A stretch of 7,277 nucleotides of DNA from a virus (IMGVR_UViG_2778261154_000009:1-7277); one strand, 5' to 3'; numbered from the stretch's first letter, positions 1-7,277 are shown. The notes: generated by a model from the letters alone, not told the origin. Program-made: numbers and translations.

Positions 1-161
1 CATCTCAGTAATACGGGAATACATTGAGATTTTCTACAATCGTCAGCGTCGTCACTCTCGTCTGGGGAATATCTCCCCGGCAGCCTTCAGGGAAAAATAT
101 CATCAGATGGCTGCTTAAAAAAAGAACAAATGGTAGTGTCCGCTATTGCCAGTACACCTCA
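1..161 (+). mobile_element. IS3-family insertion sequence, 3' (right) end only; element continues upstream of the window
   Basis: Frame-2 ORF reads to a stop at 116-118. Downstream, the reverse complement of 131-161 reads TGAGGTGTACTGGCAATAGCGGACACTACC, which has the TGA start and GGACAC core I associate with IS3-family terminal inverted repeats. Right boundary (about 161) is from memory and approximate. Confidence 0.6.
2..118 (+). CDS. IS3-family transposase OrfB, C-terminal 38 codons (5' partial)
   Basis: Translation of 2-118 gives ISVIREYIEIFYNRQRRHSRLGNISPAAFREKYHQMAA then stop. The FYNxxRxHSxLGxxSP motif is the characteristic C-terminus of IS3-family DDE transposases. Exact IS species not assigned. 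Confidence 0.8.
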   Translation: MSVIREYIEIFYNRQRRHSRLGNISPAAFREKYHQMAA

Positions 162-214
162 CCGTTAGCGGCTGCGTCACTCAGTTTAAAATAAGCATAT
201 GCTTTCATATTCAT
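162..214 (-). pseudogene. 5' stub of a prophage ORF downstream of gam, apparently truncated by the IS3-family insertion
   Basis: Minus-strand AGAGGAAATGAATATG (strong SD, ATG at 214-212 or 208-206) opens a frame encoding MNMKAYAYFKLSDAAANG that runs into the putative IS inverted repeat and stops at 145-143. Inference only. Confidence 0.3.
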
Positions 215-305
215 TTCCTCTGGTCCTGATTCAGGCGCGAGCAATCCCCTGACGCATCGCGCCATAATTAAAAGAAAGTGAATTAATTAAATATTCGTCG
301 TGGTA

Positions 306-830
306 TTAAATACCGGCATCCTGTTCAAACGGAATAATAGAAAAATCTTCAATGCCTGATTTAACTGTAATTCCGGCGACACCTGCGACTGCTTTCGGCT
401 CCAGTAAAATCGCTTCCTTGTTGATTTCCTGTTTCGTGCGAATAAAGCGTTGAAGGCCAAGACGCTCCAGTGTTTCCATCACCGCATCCACACCGCGAAT
501 ACTTACTGATGGTGGGCGCTGACGCCATGACACATCACCGGTTACCAGGTTTGCCGTCTTCACCTTGCCGCCGTTCGTCAGTTCGTCACGGTTCGCTTCA
601 CACCATCCCTGAACGCCTTTTGAAAGGGTTTCGATACTGGTTTTAAGCGGTGCAATCTGTGAGGCGTATTTCTCCGTAATCTCAGCGATAGCGTCATTCA
701 TTTCCGTTTCAAGTCGTGCTGCTTCGCGTTGCAGGTCCCCAATCCGGCGGATATCACATACCACGGCATCGCGGGATTGCGGAACATAAGCCGCTGCGGC
801 GTTCCTGATTCGTTTTGCGGGTTTAGCCAT
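306..830 (-). CDS. gam: Host-nuclease inhibitor Gam (Mu Gam / Ku-like DNA end-binding protein), 174 aa
   Basis: Full ORF with SD AGGAG 9-10 nt upstream of the ATG at 830-828. Sequence (MAKPAKRIRNAAAAYVPQSRDAV...GIEDFSIIPFEQDAGI) and length match Mu-family Gam as I recall it. Confidence 0.9.
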   Translation of the reverse strand: MAKPAKRIRNAAAAYVPQSRDAVVCDIRRIGDLQREAARLETEMNDAIAEITEKYASQIAPLKTSIETLSKGVQGWCEANRDELTNGGKVKTANLVTGDVSWRQRPPSVSIRGVDAVMETLERLGLQRFIRTKQEINKEAILLEPKAVAGVAGITVKSGIEDFSIIPFEQDAGI

Positions 831-848
831 AAATAAAGCTCCTGTTAA

Positions 849-1136
849 TTAATATTCACTGTATACAATGCCGGATACAGCACGATTGCTTAATTCCATC
901 TTTTGGGCTATCACATGAATAGCCAGCCCTTCTTTATAAAGTTCACGGCATAAATATTTGTCGTGCTCACTGACCTGGTATGCACACAACGATATTCCGT
1001 GCCTTCTGGCATGTGCCTGTAGGGCGGTTGGGGCAACTTTCAGTTTTTTCGCCATTTCCTCGACGGTCATTTTTCCGACACTGGCTTCGATAAATTCCCG
1101 GTCTTCGCGTGACCAGCGTTTACGATTACACGTCAT
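849..1136 (-). CDS. Hypothetical early protein, 95 aa from ATG 1136 (99 aa if GTG 1148), putative HTH DNA-binding
   Basis: ORF in operon orientation. N-terminal segment WSREDREFIEASVGKMTVEEMAKKLKVAPTALQAHARRHGIS has an HTH-like pattern. The upstream gene's TGA (1151-1149) abuts this start. No family assigned. Confidence 0.6.
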   Translation of the reverse strand: MTCNRKRWSREDREFIEASVGKMTVEEMAKKLKVAPTALQAHARRHGISLCAYQVSEHDKYLCRELYKEGLAIHVIAQKMELSNRAVSGIVYSEY

Positions 1137-1148
1137 TCCGGTCACCAC

Positions 1149-1568
1149 TCAGTACAACAGAGGCTCGCGCAGTGATGCCGGAATATGCCGCAGCGATAAC
1201 TGAACCGCTTTCAGGACAAGCGAGGAATAACAGCAGCGCGCCCAGCCTTTTGCCATTAACCGGTAATCGCGCCAGATACGCTGCCACATTTCACGGGCTT
1301 TCGGGTCTGACGCGCAGATGTATTCGCGGTCCATGACGTATTCCCATAAATCCACATTGAAGGCATTGCCAAACGTAATGGCGCGGAATACCGCCTCTCC
1401 GCAATAACGCGCACAAATGCTGTAATGGTCAAATGCAATCAGGTAAGTCTTTTCGCCATACCCCTCAACTTCGCGCGCACAAATAAATTCGCGCAAGTCT
1501 CCACCATTGTTATTACGCTCTTTAATCCGAATTAATGCCCGGATTTCATTTCGGATTTTGACGTTCAT
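1149..1568 (-). CDS. Hypothetical early protein, 139 aa, Cys/His-containing
   Basis: ORF with SD AAGGAA 9 nt upstream of the ATG at 1568-1566; the longer track ORF starting at 1592 lacks an SD. Contains HYSICARYC (H-x3-C-x3-C) plus further Cys residues. No recognisable family. Confidence 0.6.
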   Translation of the reverse strand: MNVKIRNEIRALIRIKERNNNGGDLREFICAREVEGYGEKTYLIAFDHYSICARYCGEAVFRAITFGNAFNVDLWEYVMDREYICASDPKAREMWQRIWRDYRLMAKGWARCCYSSLVLKAVQLSLRHIPASLREPLLY

Positions 1569-1582
1569 TGTCAGCGTTCCTT

Positions 1583-1846
1583 TCAGTGGCATGTTTTTTC
1601 AACAGCCATTTCAGTGACACGGCCACCGGTGATGACACTATCGTTTTTCAAAATCTCGATAGCTTCATGGGCTGACTCATTAATTATTTTCTGGCTTTTA
1701 TTAAGCACCAGTAACGCCACCATGCCAGCAAGTGTACCCTCATCACCGTCCAGTTCCGCACTACCGTCCACCGCAATGCTGGTGCGCAAATTCAGTCCTT
1801 TAATTCCAGATACTGTATTTTTAATTTCAATAATTACTTTTGCCAT
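1583..1846 (-). CDS. Hypothetical early protein, 87 aa, acidic
   Basis: SD GAGGAA 8 nt upstream of the ATG at 1846-1844; the track ORF begins at an upstream GTG (1861) without an SD. Stop overlaps the next gene start by 10 bp if 1592 is used, consistent with operon packing. Confidence 0.6.
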   Translation of the reverse strand: MAKVIIEIKNTVSGIKGLNLRTSIAVDGSAELDGDEGTLAGMVALLVLNKSQKIINESAHEAIEILKNDSVITGGRVTEMAVEKTCH

Positions 1847-1878
1847 TTTGTTATTCCTCACAAATAAATAAGCCGTTA

Positions 1879-2106
1879 TTAACGCCAGATAATCTGGCAG
1901 CCATTAAGGCGGGCCGTCCATACTGAACGGGCAACCCCTGATTTATGCTCCATAATCCTGACAGCGTTTCTGACCAGCTCCGGTGGTGGGCAGGTGATTT
2001 CAAGTACCGGACGCGCCACGCCGAGATATGATTCATTTACGTGACTCCCGTGCGCCTGTAACCAGTTCTGCGCATCCGTTGCCATTTTTATATTTCGTGA
2101 CATCAT
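1879..2106 (-). CDS. Small early protein in the position of Mu kil (immediately downstream of B), 75 aa
   Basis: SD AAGGA 9 nt upstream of ATG 2106-2104, 16 nt after the B stop. Kil assignment is positional only; I cannot verify sequence similarity, so no symbol is given. Confidence 0.6.
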
Positions 2107-2121
2107 GGTTTATGTCCTTTA

Positions 2122-3072
2122 CTACCAGTTCAGTAACCTGGGGTTGCTGTAAGCCTCCTTAAAAGCCGCTTTAATGTGACTTTTATTCAGGGATGTGCCT
2201 GCACCTTTTGCCGCCAGCCACGCATGATTCAGTGTGTGAGTTAATACACGCAATCCCCCGGGCTTTTCGGCTACCCTCATCAGCAGGTCCAGCTCATCTT
2301 CCTGTGTTACTCCCCATGCTTTGGCTACAGCCATCACATCGGTCTTTTTTACTTTGCGCAGTTGTTTTGTCATGGCAAAACGGCTGAACAGACGGGCCAG
2401 TTCATCAGTCCCACGACGGGTGGCATCCGCCATCTGTTTCGGGTTGCCAATTAAAACCATCCCCACGCCAGTGGCATCCTGAATGGCGCGTAATTGCTCC
2501 AGACCATCCACACTTAAGTGATCAGCTTCATCAATAATCAGAAGGGGGTTAACACGGCCACTGGTTTCTTTACCACCACCCAGTTTTCTGCGAATGGCGC
2601 GGGTTATATTCCCCTTATTTCTTCCCGGATTATTAATTTCCAGCGCATATGCTATTTCAAGGAGGCATTCCGTTACGCTCGAATGTGCCGGAGCAAGAGT
2701 CACCATCCAGGCATTAGCTGTCCTGCGACAATATTCCCGGGCAGCAAAGGTTTTTCCGACACCCGGTACGCCAACAACAACACTGATAATCCCGAGTGAG
2801 CGCACTGTTTTAAACAGTTCATGCAAATCACAAAATGTCTGGGTCTTCACAACGCCGGGGGTACCTGACAAATTCTGCCCTTTCTGCCAGACCCGATACC
2901 ATTCCTGTAATTTGTCATACATGCCTTCAACATTGCCTCTGTACTTTCCTTTACGAAGATCAGAAAGTGTTGCCGGAGACATTCCGGCTTCATCAGCAAT
3001 ATCTTCCTGAGACTTGTCGCCCTCGTTAATCAAAGCGTTAATAGTGTTGAAAACATCATCAATATCAGTCAT
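2122..3072 (-). CDS. B: Mu B-like transposition ATPase (target DNA activator), 316 aa
   Basis: Walker A GVPGVGKT and Walker B LLIIDEADHL; N-terminal HTH-like segment (DEAGMSPATLSDLRKGKY); SD GAGGAA 6-7 nt upstream of ATG 3072-3070; located directly downstream of the transposase gene. Confidence 0.9.
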   Translation of the reverse strand: MTDIDDVFNTINALINEGDKSQEDIADEAGMSPATLSDLRKGKYRGNVEGMYDKLQEWYRVWQKGQNLSGTPGVVKTQTFCDLHELFKTVRSLGIISVVVGVPGVGKTFAAREYCRRTANAWMVTLAPAHSSVTECLLEIAYALEINNPGRNKGNITRAIRRKLGGGKETSGRVNPLLIIDEADHLSVDGLEQLRAIQDATGVGMVLIGNPKQMADATRRGTDELARLFSRFAMTKQLRKVKKTDVMAVAKAWGVTQEDELDLLMRVAEKPGGLRVLTHTLNHAWLAAKGAGTSLNKSHIKAAFKEAYSNPRLLNW

Positions 3073-3116
3073 AGTATTTCCTCGGTTATTTCAAATCAGC
3101 TTTGTTTCCTTTATTT

Positions 3117-3145
3117 AACAGTCCGTTCCCGCGGACTGTTTTTTT
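3117..3145 (+). terminator. Intrinsic-terminator-like hairpin with T7 tract in the A-B spacer, oriented for plus-strand (antisense) transcription
   Basis: Perfect 9-bp stem AACAGTCCG (3117-3125) / CGGACTGTT (3132-3140), 6-nt loop, followed by a 7-T run (3139-3145). On the operon (minus) strand the hairpin is not followed by a U-tract. Confidence 0.35.
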
Positions 3146-3147
3146 AT

Positions 3148-5244
3148 TCAGGCCAGCGGATCATCTTCTTCCTGCATGGCAAAAAGTTTTTGCATCCCCA
3201 GCCGGAAATCGCGTTCAAATTCTTCGTCATGCTCTTCTTCATATTTCGGTTGCTGAACTGCCACCACATTACCAACCGGGCGATAAACATTACTCAGCCA
3301 GGGTTCAGCCTGTTTGTGTTCCAGAATCTGAATACCTTCATCTTCAGCATCACGAATTTTTTCCTCAGCGCGTTTGCGCATTCCTTTAATACGCTGCTGT
3401 TGTTTGTGATATTCAGCACTGACAGCAAAGGCTGCGCGTTTATTGCCGTTCCATATCGCCTCACAGATAAAGCTGCCGTCCTTGCGACGTACCGTAATTC
3501 GCTCGGCGTCATGAATGTCATAACTGATAAGCACTTTGCGACCGTGTTCGTCACGCAACTCCGGCGCGTAGTAAATATTGTTCAGCCACTGAATTTCGCA
3601 GCGTCTTACCGGTCGTTCCACCATTGGGCGGAACATGTCGCGCAGCTCAAGATCACTCAGCCACTCAATTTCGGTGTCTTCTTCTGCCAGGCGTTTTTTT
3701 CTGAACTCTGTCGGGCTGTAATGCCGTCCGTTCGGTTTCATCGGCAGCTCAGAATGCGGGCGGTTGTTGTACCATTCCACGCCTTCACGAATAGCCTCAA
3801 TAAGCTCCGCCCACGATGGCAGCTCGCGCATTGCCGCTTTCTGGCGGTCGTTCAGAGGCTTGTCCTGTTGCAGGGCGTTAAACGCTGAACGCAGATCACG
3901 GTTAAGTACACGCAACGATTCCCGGTCAGCACCCTTGCCAAAATAGGTGCGATACCTCCTGGCTATACGCATCGGCAGTGTCCGGTTCAGGCGTTCAATA
4001 ATGCCGCGTCCCTGTGGATTACCGGCAATACCGGTAGGGTGTTTAATCCCCAGGCGTGGCAGAATACCCACGACCTCTTTGTCCAGCATGTCAGCCGTTT
4101 CACCGGAACCGTTATCCGAGTAATACAGGAACGGTTTTCCGTGGTTGCGAATGCCGTGCTGTATCGCACCGGCAACGGCGAACACGTTTTCGGCAAGGTC
4201 AAGACTCCAGCCAACAACAAACCGTGTTCCACCATCGATCACAAACGTGACTTCCGGTGAGAATGGACGCCCGTGGATCGGATGCGCACATTTCAGCTTC
4301 ATACCGTGACCGTCACCAATCCAGACATAATTCACCGGCATAGCTGTCCAGTCGCGGCGGGTGAATCCTTCAAGCTGACGGTATTCACTGCCGGTAACGC
4401 GCCCTTTTTGTTTCACCACTTCCGGCAGTTTTTTCATGGCATACCGGACAACATCATAGGAAGGCATCACCTCCAGCATGTACGGTTCGTCCGCATGGCG
4501 ACGCTGCCATTCTGCGACAAAATCCTCGTAGGCTTCTGACATGGGTCTGCCGTTCACCTGGCGATACTGCGCCAGAAATTCAGGCAGCCAGCTGATTTCT
4601 TCCGGTTTTATTTCGTCGCGTTTTCCCGGTGCCAGTAACAGCAGCCGTTCGGCGGCGTTCTGCGACTGGTTGTATTTCAGAACCCACTGGTAAAGTGGAT
4701 CGCGGCTGATAGTACGATTAGCGCCACGTTTTGCATTGGCGTTAACTGCGGCCTGTTGCAGGCGCTCCGGCAGCTCACCTTTACGGGCTTTTTCAACAAG
4801 AAAGTTAATGGCTTTCAGTCGCCCGAGGTTACCGGCGCTTTCCAGCTTCAGCACTTCCACCACCAGCGCAGCTCTTGCTTCAGATACCCGGCGCTGGTTT
4901 TCGGTCAGCGCATTCAGGCGTTCTTCCATCAGTTGTGGAGAACCGCGATATGCTTCGATTGCCTGGACAGCGTCAGGATTGCGTGTTTTTCTGGTAACAG
5001 CTTTCACTTCAGAAACATTGTTCTCTGTAGCCACCAGCTGTTCCACATAGCGTTCACGCAGTGCCTTTCGTGTTATTTCAGGCAGACAATCAATGTGGTA
5101 CTCAATGGCTTTTGTGCCTTCCCGACGGCGACTAACGTCACCAAGATCACGAGAAAAACGCTGTAACGCCTGTCGGATGCCTTTTGTGGTGGCTGGCATT
5201 CCTGGTACGCCGAGCAGGTCATTTACGGTAACGTACGACTGCAT
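3148..5244 (-). CDS. A: Mu A-like DDE transposase, 698 aa from ATG 5244
   Basis: N-terminus (LLGVPGMPATTKGIRQ...GTKAIEYHIDCLPEITRKAL) resembles the MuA enhancer-binding winged-helix domain. DDE core candidates WIGDGHG, YYSDNGSG and GIIERLNR. Start at 5244 chosen for SD AGGAAGG; the 721-aa track ORF start at 5313 has no SD and overlaps ner. Confidence 0.9.
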   Translation of the reverse strand: MQSYVTVNDLLGVPGMPATTKGIRQALQRFSRDLGDVSRRREGTKAIEYHIDCLPEITRKALRERYVEQLVATENNVSEVKAVTRKTRNPDAVQAIEAYRGSPQLMEERLNALTENQRRVSEARAALVVEVLKLESAGNLGRLKAINFLVEKARKGELPERLQQAAVNANAKRGANRTISRDPLYQWVLKYNQSQNAAERLLLLAPGKRDEIKPEEISWLPEFLAQYRQVNGRPMSEAYEDFVAEWQRRHADEPYMLEVMPSYDVVRYAMKKLPEVVKQKGRVTGSEYRQLEGFTRRDWTAMPVNYVWIGDGHGMKLKCAHPIHGRPFSPEVTFVIDGGTRFVVGWSLDLAENVFAVAGAIQHGIRNHGKPFLYYSDNGSGETADMLDKEVVGILPRLGIKHPTGIAGNPQGRGIIERLNRTLPMRIARRYRTYFGKGADRESLRVLNRDLRSAFNALQQDKPLNDRQKAAMRELPSWAELIEAIREGVEWYNNRPHSELPMKPNGRHYSPTEFRKKRLAEEDTEIEWLSDLELRDMFRPMVERPVRRCEIQWLNNIYYAPELRDEHGRKVLISYDIHDAERITVRRKDGSFICEAIWNGNKRAAFAVSAEYHKQQQRIKGMRKRAEEKIRDAEDEGIQILEHKQAEPWLSNVYRPVGNVVAVQQPKYEEEHDEEFERDFRLGMQKLFAMQEEDDPLA

Positions 5245-5245
5245 A

Positions 5246-5497
5246 TCACGACACCTTCCTGATAAATCCATCGTTACGATACCGGCTGGGCCAGATGATT
5301 TCTGGCGGTACACCTATAGCGTCAGAAATTACGCGTTCGTATTTTTTGTTTGGTGTGCGAACTACCGCTTTCAGTGAATCCTGAGCATAACCAGCATGGA
5401 GTGAAAGCTCCCGGAAGGAAGACCACCCGTTATCTTTGAGCGCCAGCTGAATCTTCAGCGAAGGCCAATCGCGGTCACTATCTTCTCTTTGTCTCAT
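5246..5497 (-). CDS. ner: Ner-like DNA-binding protein (Mu Ner / Nlp family), 83 aa
   Basis: Contains the Ner/Nlp signature (DWPSLKIQLALKDNGWSSFRELS...PEIIWPSRY); SD AAGGAAAG before ATG 5497-5495; stop TGA is 1 nt from the A start (TGATATG). Confidence 0.85.
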   Translation of the reverse strand: MRQREDSDRDWPSLKIQLALKDNGWSSFRELSLHAGYAQDSLKAVVRTPNKKYERVISDAIGVPPEIIWPSRYRNDGFIRKVS

Positions 5498-5526
5498 CTT
5501 TCCTTTAACCTACAAAATTACCCGCG

Positions 5527-5548
5527 CGGATATCCGGTCGGATATCCG
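5527..5548. promoter_or_regulatory. Two tandem copies of the perfect 10-bp palindrome CGGATATCCG: candidate operator sites
   Basis: Exact copies at 5527-5536 and 5539-5548, 12 bp start-to-start, in the ner-repressor intergenic region just downstream of the candidate early promoter. Confidence 0.5.
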
Positions 5549-5557
5549 TATGGATAA

Positions 5558-5586
5558 AGATTAAGATACCAAAGATTCCTTGTAAA
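5558..5586 (-). promoter_or_regulatory. Candidate early promoter (Pe-like) for ner-A-B
   Basis: Minus-strand TTTACA (5586-5581), 17-bp spacer, TAATCT (5563-5558). Predicted start lies just upstream of the palindromes. Sequence-pattern call only. Confidence 0.35.
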
Positions 5587-5629
5587 GGGTTCTTTGGTGT
5601 TTTTATGGTTTATTTTTTAATTTCATTAT

Positions 5630-5642
5630 TTATCAATGAATT
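5630..5642. promoter_or_regulatory. IHF consensus match (WATCAANNNNTTR)
   Basis: TATCAATGAATTA at 5630-5642, preceded by an A/T-rich tract, between the divergent repressor and ner starts. Mu has an IHF site in its operator region. Confidence 0.4.
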
Positions 5643-5661
5643 AGATAGAAAGGAACCAAGA

Positions 5662-6225
5662 ATGAGAAAAGCACCCCAAGGTTCTTTTCCTGCCGATGGA
5701 AAAGAACCGATTATCGAAAGAATCTTTAGGTTAGTAGAACGATACCCTTCAAGAAATGCGGCTGCTCGGGCATGGGGGATCAATGAAGGCACTTTAAAAA
5801 ATTATTACAACAGGCGGGATTACGCACCGATACCACGCCCGCATCAGTTAAAAAAGATAGCAGAAAGCGAAAATGTTACCTTGGAATGGCTCATGACGGG
5901 AGAGGGTGATGTTGAACTAAAAGATTCCAAAGAACCCAAAAAAGAGAATGCGGATAATGTTGATGCTCAAATTCTAATGTTCTTGTCATTTCTTAAACCA
6001 CAAGAAAAACAACAAGTAGCTGATGTTCTTGGGAGAAAAGGAGCGGAGCAATTACTCATTCTTCTGGATGAGCACATCCAAGAGTTGCACGCTCTAGTTG
6101 GAGTTCGTAGAGCCATAGCGTTAAGCCTTGGTAATTTGCCAGACGAAAAGGTTAGAGAGATTTACGCGTTGTCCGAAGCTAAGGGCGATCACTTAAATCT
6201 ACCTCAGAAAGCAGCCAGCGCATAA
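5662..6225 (+). CDS. c: Prophage repressor (c-like): XRE-type HTH N-terminus with a Mu-repressor-like C-terminal region, 187 aa
   Basis: SD AAAGGAA 8-9 nt upstream of ATG 5662; the track ORF start at 5605 lacks an SD. N-terminus has an XRE/Cro-CI HTH pattern (SRNAAARAWGINEGTLKNYY...LEWLMTGEG). C-terminal segment resembles the Mu Repc C-terminal region as I recall it. Divergent from ner, in the Mu c position. Confidence 0.7.
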   Translation: MRKAPQGSFPADGKEPIIERIFRLVERYPSRNAAARAWGINEGTLKNYYNRRDYAPIPRPHQLKKIAESENVTLEWLMTGEGDVELKDSKEPKKENADNVDAQILMFLSFLKPQEKQQVADVLGRKGAEQLLILLDEHIQELHALVGVRRAIALSLGNLPDEKVREIYALSEAKGDHLNLPQKAASA

Positions 6226-6348
6226 CCCAGTGCAAGTGCCTAGCTGTGCTAAAATTACATTGGTTTTGGCGCTTGCACCCATCAGCGCTATAATAAACAC
6301 CTGAATCGTTTTTGAACGGTCTTTAAAGGCTATTGTAAGAACCTGTGA

Positions 6349-6483
6349 GTTATCTTGAATGTTTTATTGATATCGAACCGTTTAACATTTTTGGACTCGC
6401 TTTATCTTGAAAACCTTGAGTTCCTAACTTGTTGATTCCAATCTATTCCCGTCTTTTTTAATCTCTTCCCGGTTATCTTGAAT
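6349..6483. repeat. Three direct repeats of TTATCTTGAA in the prophage terminal non-coding region: candidate transposase end-binding sites (attL L1-L3-like)
   Basis: Core TTATCTTGAA at 6350-6359, 6402-6411 and 6473-6482; the outer two copies are identical over 12 bp (GTTATCTTGAAT). Read inward, each contains TTCAAGATAA, which carries the TTCA element of the Mu end-site consensus. Confidence 0.5.
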
Positions 6484-6500
6484 AAATTACCTAGTCATAA

Positions 6501-7118
<618 letters not shown>

Positions 7119-7148: not shown

Positions 7149-7188
7149 TTAAGTTGCTTTCTTATAAATTAATACAGATTAATCCTGG

Positions 7189-7277
7189 GGTGATGCTGCC
7201 AACTTACTGATTTAGTGTATGATGGTGTTTTTGAGGTGCTCCAGTGGCTTCTGTTTCTATCAGCTGTCCCTCCTGTT
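7189..7277 (+). mobile_element. IS1 left end (terminal inverted repeat plus start of insA), element continues beyond the window
   Basis: GGTGATGCTGCCAACTTACTGAT terminal repeat at 7189-7211, followed by sequence matching the IS1 5' region as I recall it. Confidence 0.9.
7244..7277 (+). CDS. insA: IS1 InsA, 5' partial (first 11 codons, GTG start)
   Basis: GTG GCT TCT GTT TCT ATC AGC TGT CCC TCC TGT encodes MASVSISCPSC, the InsA N-terminus. Confidence 0.8.
   Translation, partial: MASVSISCPSC

Follow-up and report, generated by a model that had tools for sequence, protein, structure and literature searches.

Phage Mu cuts at a conserved CA with a 5-bp stagger, and both properties are taken as hallmarks of the element (PMC3562280). 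A 2021 paper gave target duplications of 5 bp (Mu) and 6 bp (B3); in the same paper, TA at both ends (TA-TA) was termed unusual and reported in Leptospira prophages only, and its occurrence in other bacteria was posed as a question (PMC8705779). Sp18-type Mu-like prophages have been known in Escherichia coli since the Sakai genome. Sp18 is reported to be packaged, and its relatives to move between loci (PMC2669165, PMC7430833, PMC10132054). Also, vB_YpM_5 and vB_YpM_6 are isolated infectious Yersinia phages (PMC10434027).

Here, we describe a relative of these elements in a stretch of viral DNA of 7,277 nucleotides (IMGVR_UViG_2778261154_000009:1-7277, hereafter the window), which is the entire 7,277-bp contig NJNE01000126.1 of GCA_002467185.1, a draft assembly that breaks at copies of insertion sequences (IS). 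The prophage portion of the window, positions 162-6499, represents the left ~6.3 kb of the element. It is almost certainly the arm for early functions and immunity in a Mu-like transposable prophage, complete at 34.7 kb, that lies in the host gene astE and later received an IS600 in its gp11-position gene. An earlier note on the window had placed a left arm at 162-6497 and considered that only this arm is present. Its left boundary of 162 is exact, as IS600 ends at 161, and the right boundary moves from 6497 to 6499 owing to a TA tip. The restriction to a left arm is true of the window but not as biology, because the contig breaks at IS600 and IS1. The note had also advised a search for the remaining prophage genes and an attR: the contig ends with the window, the right end is on another contig of the same assembly (NJNE01000082.1), and the rest is present in a sister assembly.

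On NJNE01000082.1, astCADB and the beginning of astE are followed by ...GCGGAGAA|TAAAGCGCGCAAAATTATTCAAGATAG and then by mom and com. This right junction, which reads ...GCGGAGAA|TAAAGCGCGC, sits beside astE codons 1-118 and carries the 4-bp duplication that matches the left side. The right tip starts with TAA, which predicts a truncation of AstE after 118 residues, and a protein of exactly 118 aa encoded on NJNE01000082.1 was found. The sister assembly UGFN01000003.1, which is long-read and chromosome-level, differs from the window by 0 mismatches and 16 indels. It contains a full 1,264-bp IS600 flanked by the 3-bp duplication CCG, i.e. a simple insertion, and directly past this copy come the rest of the interrupted gp11-position gene (DUF5420 family) and the downstream early genes up to gemA. 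The tip-to-tip length in UGFN01000003.1 is 35,982 bp (34,715 + 1,264 + 3), in agreement with the 34,716-bp prophage of E. coli FDAARGOS_943 plus the 1,264-bp IS600 and the 3-bp duplication. The FDAARGOS_943 prophage is complete, and its left arm is 99.3% identical to that of the window. Further, baseplate, tail, portal, terminase, Mor and GemA genes were found in the sister and related loci, and the com-mom late right end and the many unrelated insertion sites with a short duplication are features of a Mu-like transposable prophage.

In UGFN01000003.1 (locus L043, 5557-8678), A and B are broken into several open reading frames (ORFs). Because the sister differs from the window by indels only (16) and by no substitutions, these frameshifts are most likely assembly errors rather than signs of pseudogenes.

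Several points weigh against reading the locus as the arm of a complete transposable prophage. The contigs of the source assembly are unjoined, and completeness was read from a sister assembly that carries 16 indels over the window. The activity of this copy, and of its A and B proteins, is predicted from sequence. A scan of 5400-6520 for sigma-70 consensus promoters found none between the repressor and ner, the regulatory layout being drawn from position and homology. In addition, IS600 lies upstream of gemA and mor and may be polar, which, on the Mu transcription map, would block middle and late expression. In Mu, the early operon has mor at its distal end. We give an even chance to the possibility that the prophage is complete in sequence but blocked in lytic growth: the antisense IS600 in the early operon would stop Mor synthesis and hence middle and late transcription, and the element could still transpose without forming particles. 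The position of IS600 between gam and the gemA-mor genes fits this possibility, as do the intact ORFs of A, B, ner and the repressor. However, read-through or an outward promoter of the IS could supply Mor. The lineage with the exact IS600 insertion is found in only a few assemblies, which is neutral on the lytic question.

It is very improbable that the element is a dead remnant in which an IS600-mediated deletion left only the left arm. The window itself could be read in this way, as it holds no late genes and retains just 47 nt of the gp11-position gene before running into IS600. However, the right junction with mom, com and the matching 4-bp duplication lies beside the other half of astE in the same assembly, and the sister assembly has the prophage continuing straight past a simply inserted IS600, with a span equal to the full length plus one IS600. 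A left-arm-only remnant was rejected on these two grounds.

The left end (attL) of the complete prophage spans 6226-6499 on the minus strand and was defined by its repeats and by insertion junctions, with the tip 5'-TATGACTAGG reading inwards from 6499. The window reads ...GTCATA|AGAAACCTG, and at the place of its TA (6498-6499) intact astE carries GG; the TA is therefore part of the element. The 11 independent insertions compared, whose flanks are of at least 11 different kinds, share the junction flank|TATGAC and vary in the first base outside it. The three right ends compared all start with TAAAGCGCGC, and neither TG nor CA occurs close to that tip. The termini are thus 5'-TA...TA-3' and not TG...CA. 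Target duplications of 4 bp were read in four insertions, AGAA (astE), GAAA, TTCA and ATTC, and the fifth base is mismatched in all four. For the insertion in yhfX, the joined flanks with a single ATTC are identical to an empty site over 396 of 396 positions. Two features of Mu in the strict sense, TG...CA termini and a 5-bp duplication, are therefore absent.

The tips and the duplication could have been mis-called, with the real ends being internal TG...CA tips accompanied by a 5-bp duplication. A TG does occur at 6496-6497, 2 nt inward of the left tip, and the Mu hallmarks are a CA tip and a 5-bp stagger (PMC3562280). Taking TG at 6496-6497 as the tip was nevertheless rejected on the GG of astE at the 6498-6499 position and on the TATGAC common to 11 of 11 left junctions, to which the right end TAAAGCGCGC, without TG or CA, can be added. 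A 5-bp TATTT repeat in FDAARGOS_943, which a TG...CA model would produce, was likewise rejected by the three right ends, the four insertions with exact 4-bp repeats and an unmatched fifth base, and the yhfX empty site with its one ATTC. Moreover, the records of vB_YpM_5 and vB_YpM_6 diverge exactly outside their TA tips, and the GenBank record LC727881 annotates a 4-bp duplication. We regard a mis-call as highly improbable, and the TA-TA tips and 4-bp duplication of the prophage in astE as real at the sequence level.

TGT tips occur in Kp4852-3 and one D3112-like phage, which are related more distantly. TA at both ends is a feature of the sublineage of the window prophage. A vB_YpM_5-type prophage of E. 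coli O111:H2 12A (NZ_CP077479.1) has TA tips, and its duplication is unreadable owing to an adjacent deletion. This prophage is flanked by tyrR and an SDR-family gene, both truncated (loci L046/L047); the genes that lie between these two in the E. coli K-12 order appear to be missing, and the locus looks like a prophage-adjacent deletion. In E. coli 06-00048 (NZ_CP015229.1; locus L005, 9411-9455, and locus L010, ~2090-2230), the left end is of the window type (TATGACCAAG..., with TTCAAGATAA repeats), while the right end is of the Mu type (TGAAGCGGCGCACGAAAAACGCGAAA). There is no matching target duplication, and this prophage probably arose by recombination between two Mu-like prophages.

Three exact copies of TTCAAGATAA were found in the window, all on the minus strand and at most 150 bp from the tip, and nowhere else. 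They form the core of three 12-nt units that are predicted transposase-binding repeats, L1 (6472-6483), L2 (6401-6412) and L3 (6349-6360). The right end on NJNE01000082.1, and also that of H1, carries three further copies of TTCAAGATAA, inverted relative to the left ones and likewise predicted to be bound. Each end therefore has three repeats arranged as in Mu, L1 standing at a distance from L2-L3 and R1-R3 lying close to one another. The spacer between L1 and L2 contains an element at ~6430-6471 (CCGGGAAGAGATT...CGGGAATAGATTGGAAT) that is conserved with Mu, vB_YpM_5, Kp4866-3 and STEC346 despite differing binding repeats, and that is less conserved in Sp18. This element is a possible pac site, judging from its sequence. 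The Mu pac site maps at roughly the place of this spacer.

Protein A (3148-5244, minus strand, 698 aa) is a MuA-family DDE transposase with both Mu domains, Mu-transpos_C (PF09299, 66.4 bits; Pfam cut-off 21.7) and HTH_Tnp_Mu_1 (PF02316, 30.5 bits; cut-off 23.3), and it falls in phrog_310 (E=2.8e-195), the family of MuA itself. Its start codon is the ATG at 5244, one base past the ner stop. Alignment with MuA and retroviral integrase cores gave D311, D377 and E417 as the catalytic residues; D311 and D377 pair with D269 and D336 of MuA, and E417, within IIERLN, aligns with the catalytic E of the integrases. A PDB sequence search with A at E<0.001 returned retroviral integrase cores only, with MuA absent. 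Directly after A comes B (2122-3072, minus strand, 316 aa), a MuB-type AAA+ ATPase assigned to target capture by Phage-MuB_C (PF09077, 83.2 bits; cut-off 25 bits), AAA_22 and phrog_296, with Walker A (GVPGVGKT) at residues 101-108 and Walker B (LLIIDE) at 177-182. B is 41% identical to MuB, 57-58% to Sp18 B and 40% to vB_YpM_5 B.

The identity of A to MuA is ~25%, compared with 81% to the Yersinia phages vB_YpM_5/6 and 76% to the Sp18 type. Farther phages are at 49-56% (Klebsiella and Pseudomonas prophages), 42-44% (SuMu and a Mannheimia phage) and 31% (D3112-like). By segment, A matches vB_YpM_5 at 44-46% over residues 1-194, at 97-98% over residues 195-560 and at 77% over residues 561-698. 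Because vB_YpM_5 has an almost identical A core, whereas the A N-terminus, and also B, are divergent, the sequence comparison argues that A residues 1-194, ner, the repressor and the end repeats behave as one exchangeable cassette, with the A C-terminus and B varying separately. By sequence, the element is thus a mosaic, in which gam-kil is of the Mu/SfMu type, the A core is vB_YpM_5/6-like and the specificity and immunity cassette is separate.

The regulator Ner of the early operon (5246-5497, minus strand, 83 aa) was recognized by Pfam HTH_35 (51.5 bits) and phrog_769, and is 35% identical to that of Mu, 53% to that of Sp18 and 45% to that of vB_YpM_5. The repressor gene (5662-6225, plus strand, 187 aa) is divergent from ner-A-B and stands beside the left end, as in a Mu-like arm, with its operator function predicted only. 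Its product belongs to phrog_3037 (E=1.3e-43), as does the repressor of Sp18, and is a hybrid of a CI-type helix-turn-helix N-terminus and a Mu-c-type C-terminal half. The stretch of residues 87-184 matches phrog_7148, to which Mu c belongs (E=1.2e-66 for Mu c), and the N-terminus of A matches the DNA-binding part of the same family. The repressor is 56% identical to a 'C repressor' of Pseudomonas VW-6B, 44% to that of Sp18 and 35% to that of vB_YpM_5. By blastp, the repressor had no significant similarity to Mu c, and its PDB sequence search yielded nothing of use. The Mu repressor has a DNA-binding domain in common with MuA, whereas in this element the two proteins share none; a Mu-like paralogy between the N-termini of the repressor and A was rejected, as there is no similarity by blastp and the likeness to Mu c in PHROG is limited to the C-terminal half. 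This paralogy, like a close identity of c, ner, A and B, is among the features of Mu in the strict sense that the element lacks.

The divergent regulatory region between the repressor and ner (5498-5661) contains candidate operators for Ner and the repressor and a candidate enhancer. Just upstream of ner, at 5519-5556, are three tandem 12-bp units, TATCCGNNCGGA, which are kept in prophages with the same type of Ner and in Sp18, and differ where Ner differs. From this pattern, the units are candidate Ner operators. An imperfect palindrome at 5560-5606, with 22-nt arms that are 77% complementary, is centred on ACCAAAGA...TCTTTGGT. Within repressor codons 7-16, there is a perfect 11-nt inverted repeat, GGTTCTTTTCC (5680-5690) and GGAAAAGAACC (5698-5708); it may serve as an operator, or it may follow from conservation of the encoded GSFP...GKEP. 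Motifs similar to AAAGAACC cluster in the same area, with 7 of the 12 matches in the window at 5588-5724. A near-consensus sigma-70 match, TTGGCG-17-TATAAT, was also seen at 6266-6294 on the plus strand, downstream of the repressor and facing the astE fragment, and is within chance expectation.

By analogy with Mu, the repressor would silence the divergent early operon, and derepression would lead to the synthesis of Ner, transposase A and ATPase B. The N-terminal domains of A would bind the three TTCAAGATAA repeats at each end, and A would nick after the terminal A of the tip. B would capture and deliver target DNA, to which A would join the 3' ends with a 4-bp stagger. Meanwhile, Kil would block septation and Gam would protect DNA ends.

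The remainder of the arm is almost purely Mu. All genes are on the minus strand: gam, for an inhibitor of host nucleases that protects DNA ends (306-830, 174 aa; Phage_Mu_Gam, E=1.9e-43; phrog_491), homologues of Mu gp9 (849-1148, 99 aa; D5-like regulator family, phrog_323), gp8 (1149-1568, 139 aa; phrog_3690) and gp7 (1583-1846, 87 aa), and kil, for a septation inhibitor (1879-2106, 75 aa; phrog_2743, E=7e-42, with PF26843 recorded for the product). The identity of the gam-kil proteins to those of Mu by blastp is 86-97%, comprising 91% for Gam, 86% over the full length for gp9, 91% for gp8, 97% for gp7 and 92% for Kil. No counterpart of Mu gp6 was found among the ORFs of the window, and the gp7 homologue follows kil almost directly (1862-1878).

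The earlier note had listed gam, small ORFs, a gene at the kil position, B, A, ner, a divergent repressor and terminal repeats; ORF, Pfam and PHROG analyses recovered all of these at nearly the coordinates given, with the small ORFs resolved as gp9, gp8 and gp7 homologues, the kil-position gene as a true Kil, and A and B as members of the MuA and MuB families. Its view of the element as a relative of Mu, and not Mu itself, is borne out with a divergence larger than it implied, and the end repeats (TTCAAGATAA) and repressor N-terminus (CI-type helix-turn-helix) that it had found unlike Mu do indeed differ. Identity with Mu itself, D108 or SfMu at ordinary strain-level divergence can be dismissed as next to impossible: the gene order is the same and gam-kil DNA reaches 90% identity with Mu and 95% with SfMu, but by megablast this match is confined to 162/226-2106 with no Mu, D108 or SfMu match across 2107-6499, the proteins diverge (A ~25%, B 41%, Ner 35%), the repressor domain is of another family, and the repeats, tips and duplication length differ.

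The flanks of the prophage hold parts of two IS elements and of the host gene. Positions 1-161 (plus strand) are the 3' end of IS600, with the end of orfB and the right inverted repeat ...GCCAGTACACCTCA; this segment interrupts the prophage and is outside it, and megablast placed it in IS600 copies of 2,945 E. coli genomes. The first 47 nt of the gp11-position gene that it splits are at 162-208 (minus strand), the uninterrupted gene of FDAARGOS_943 starting at the equivalent of 208, and the IS600 target duplication has one of its copies in bases 162-164 (CCG). On the other side, AGAA at 6500-6503 is the left copy of the 4-bp target duplication, intact astE reading ...GCGG AGAA ACCTG. The 3' part of astE (6500-7118, plus strand), identified by AstE_AspA Pfam domains, is from 6500 on 100% identical to many E. 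coli genomes. Homology to astE ends at 7188, and an IS1 matching IS1A starts at 7189 (GGTGATGCTGCC...; 7189-7277, plus strand), between astE and spy. A full IS1 occupies this position in UGFN01000003.1, and the IS1 near astE in FDAARGOS_943 is a separate insertion.

Both ends of the contig lie in multi-copy repeats, IS600 on the start side and IS1 on the far side, and the contig ends are therefore read as short-read assembly breaks. The host is rich in IS1 and IS600, similar to Shigella or enteroinvasive E. coli. Among the complete E. coli genomes searched with the whole window, none has the junctions of the window, and an Rfam scan of the window gave zero matches.

The prophage itself is routine, and 99%-identical copies are already in RefSeq. 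What may matter is the chemistry of its ends. We rate it as an open bet, no better and no worse than even, that an enterobacterial MuA-type lineage comprising the window prophage, vB_YpM_5/6 and partly Sp18 has TA-3' transferred ends and a 4-bp stagger, as against the CA-3' and 5 bp of textbook Mu. In the literature on Mu-like phages, we found no description of a 4-bp duplication, the sole record being the GenBank annotation of LC727881, and none of TA-TA tips for Sp18/vB_YpM-type phages. The biochemistry of Mu has the CA tip and its 5-bp stagger as a foundation (PMC3562280). If the features are undescribed, the lineage would offer an E. coli-tractable natural variant for testing the role of the penultimate C and the stagger length in a Mu-type transpososome. 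Leptospira, the one source of published TA-TA transposable prophages that we found (PMC8705779), is hard to work with, whereas existing Mu tools could be applied to a variant with E. coli, Shigella or Yersinia as its host. In addition, the window illustrates the modularity of the Mu left end, in which the repeats, the A N-terminus, ner and the repressor travel as a cassette beside an almost purely Mu gam-kil block, with separate exchange of the A core and B.

Compared with described systems, the left-arm layout of Mu (NC_000929), D108 and SfMu is identical to that of the window, and the left-end spacer is conserved. These phages have TG-CA tips, a 5-bp duplication and gp6, whereas the window element has TA-TA tips, a 4-bp duplication and no gp6; also, Mu c has a MuA-like winged helix, unlike the DNA-binding domain of the window repressor. 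The Leptospira TA-TA prophages have B3/Tn552-type transposases and a 6-bp duplication, in contrast to the MuA-type transposase, 4-bp duplication and enterobacterial hosts seen here. An identity of A of at least ~75%, a phrog_3037-type repressor, a 4-bp duplication and a TA right tip place the element in the Sp18/vB_YpM_5 lineage. Sp18 of E. coli O157:H7 Sakai and the Sp18-like elements in Stx phages (LC727881, LC727895) have the same gene order, a repressor that is also of phrog_3037, proteins that in Sp18 are 76% (A), 58% (B), 53% (Ner) and 44% (repressor) identical, a 4-bp duplication (TAAA in Sakai; GATG in LC727881, annotated as "duplication due to insertion") and a TA right tip. However, the left tip of Sp18 is TG (TGTAACC...), whereas both tips of the window element are TA; the core of the Sp18 end repeats is TTTGATAC instead of TTCAAGATAA, the immunity and Ner alleles differ, and the left-end spacer is not conserved. 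The tips are also alike in vB_YpM_5/6 (genus Muvirus), which have TA at both ends (TATGAAGAGG... and ...GCGCGCTTTA) and ~90% DNA identity to the window over gam-kil, but differ in their TTTGATAC-type end repeats and in a gp6-sized gene between kil and gp7. Because these two phages are infectious, TA-TA ends are compatible with a full life cycle.

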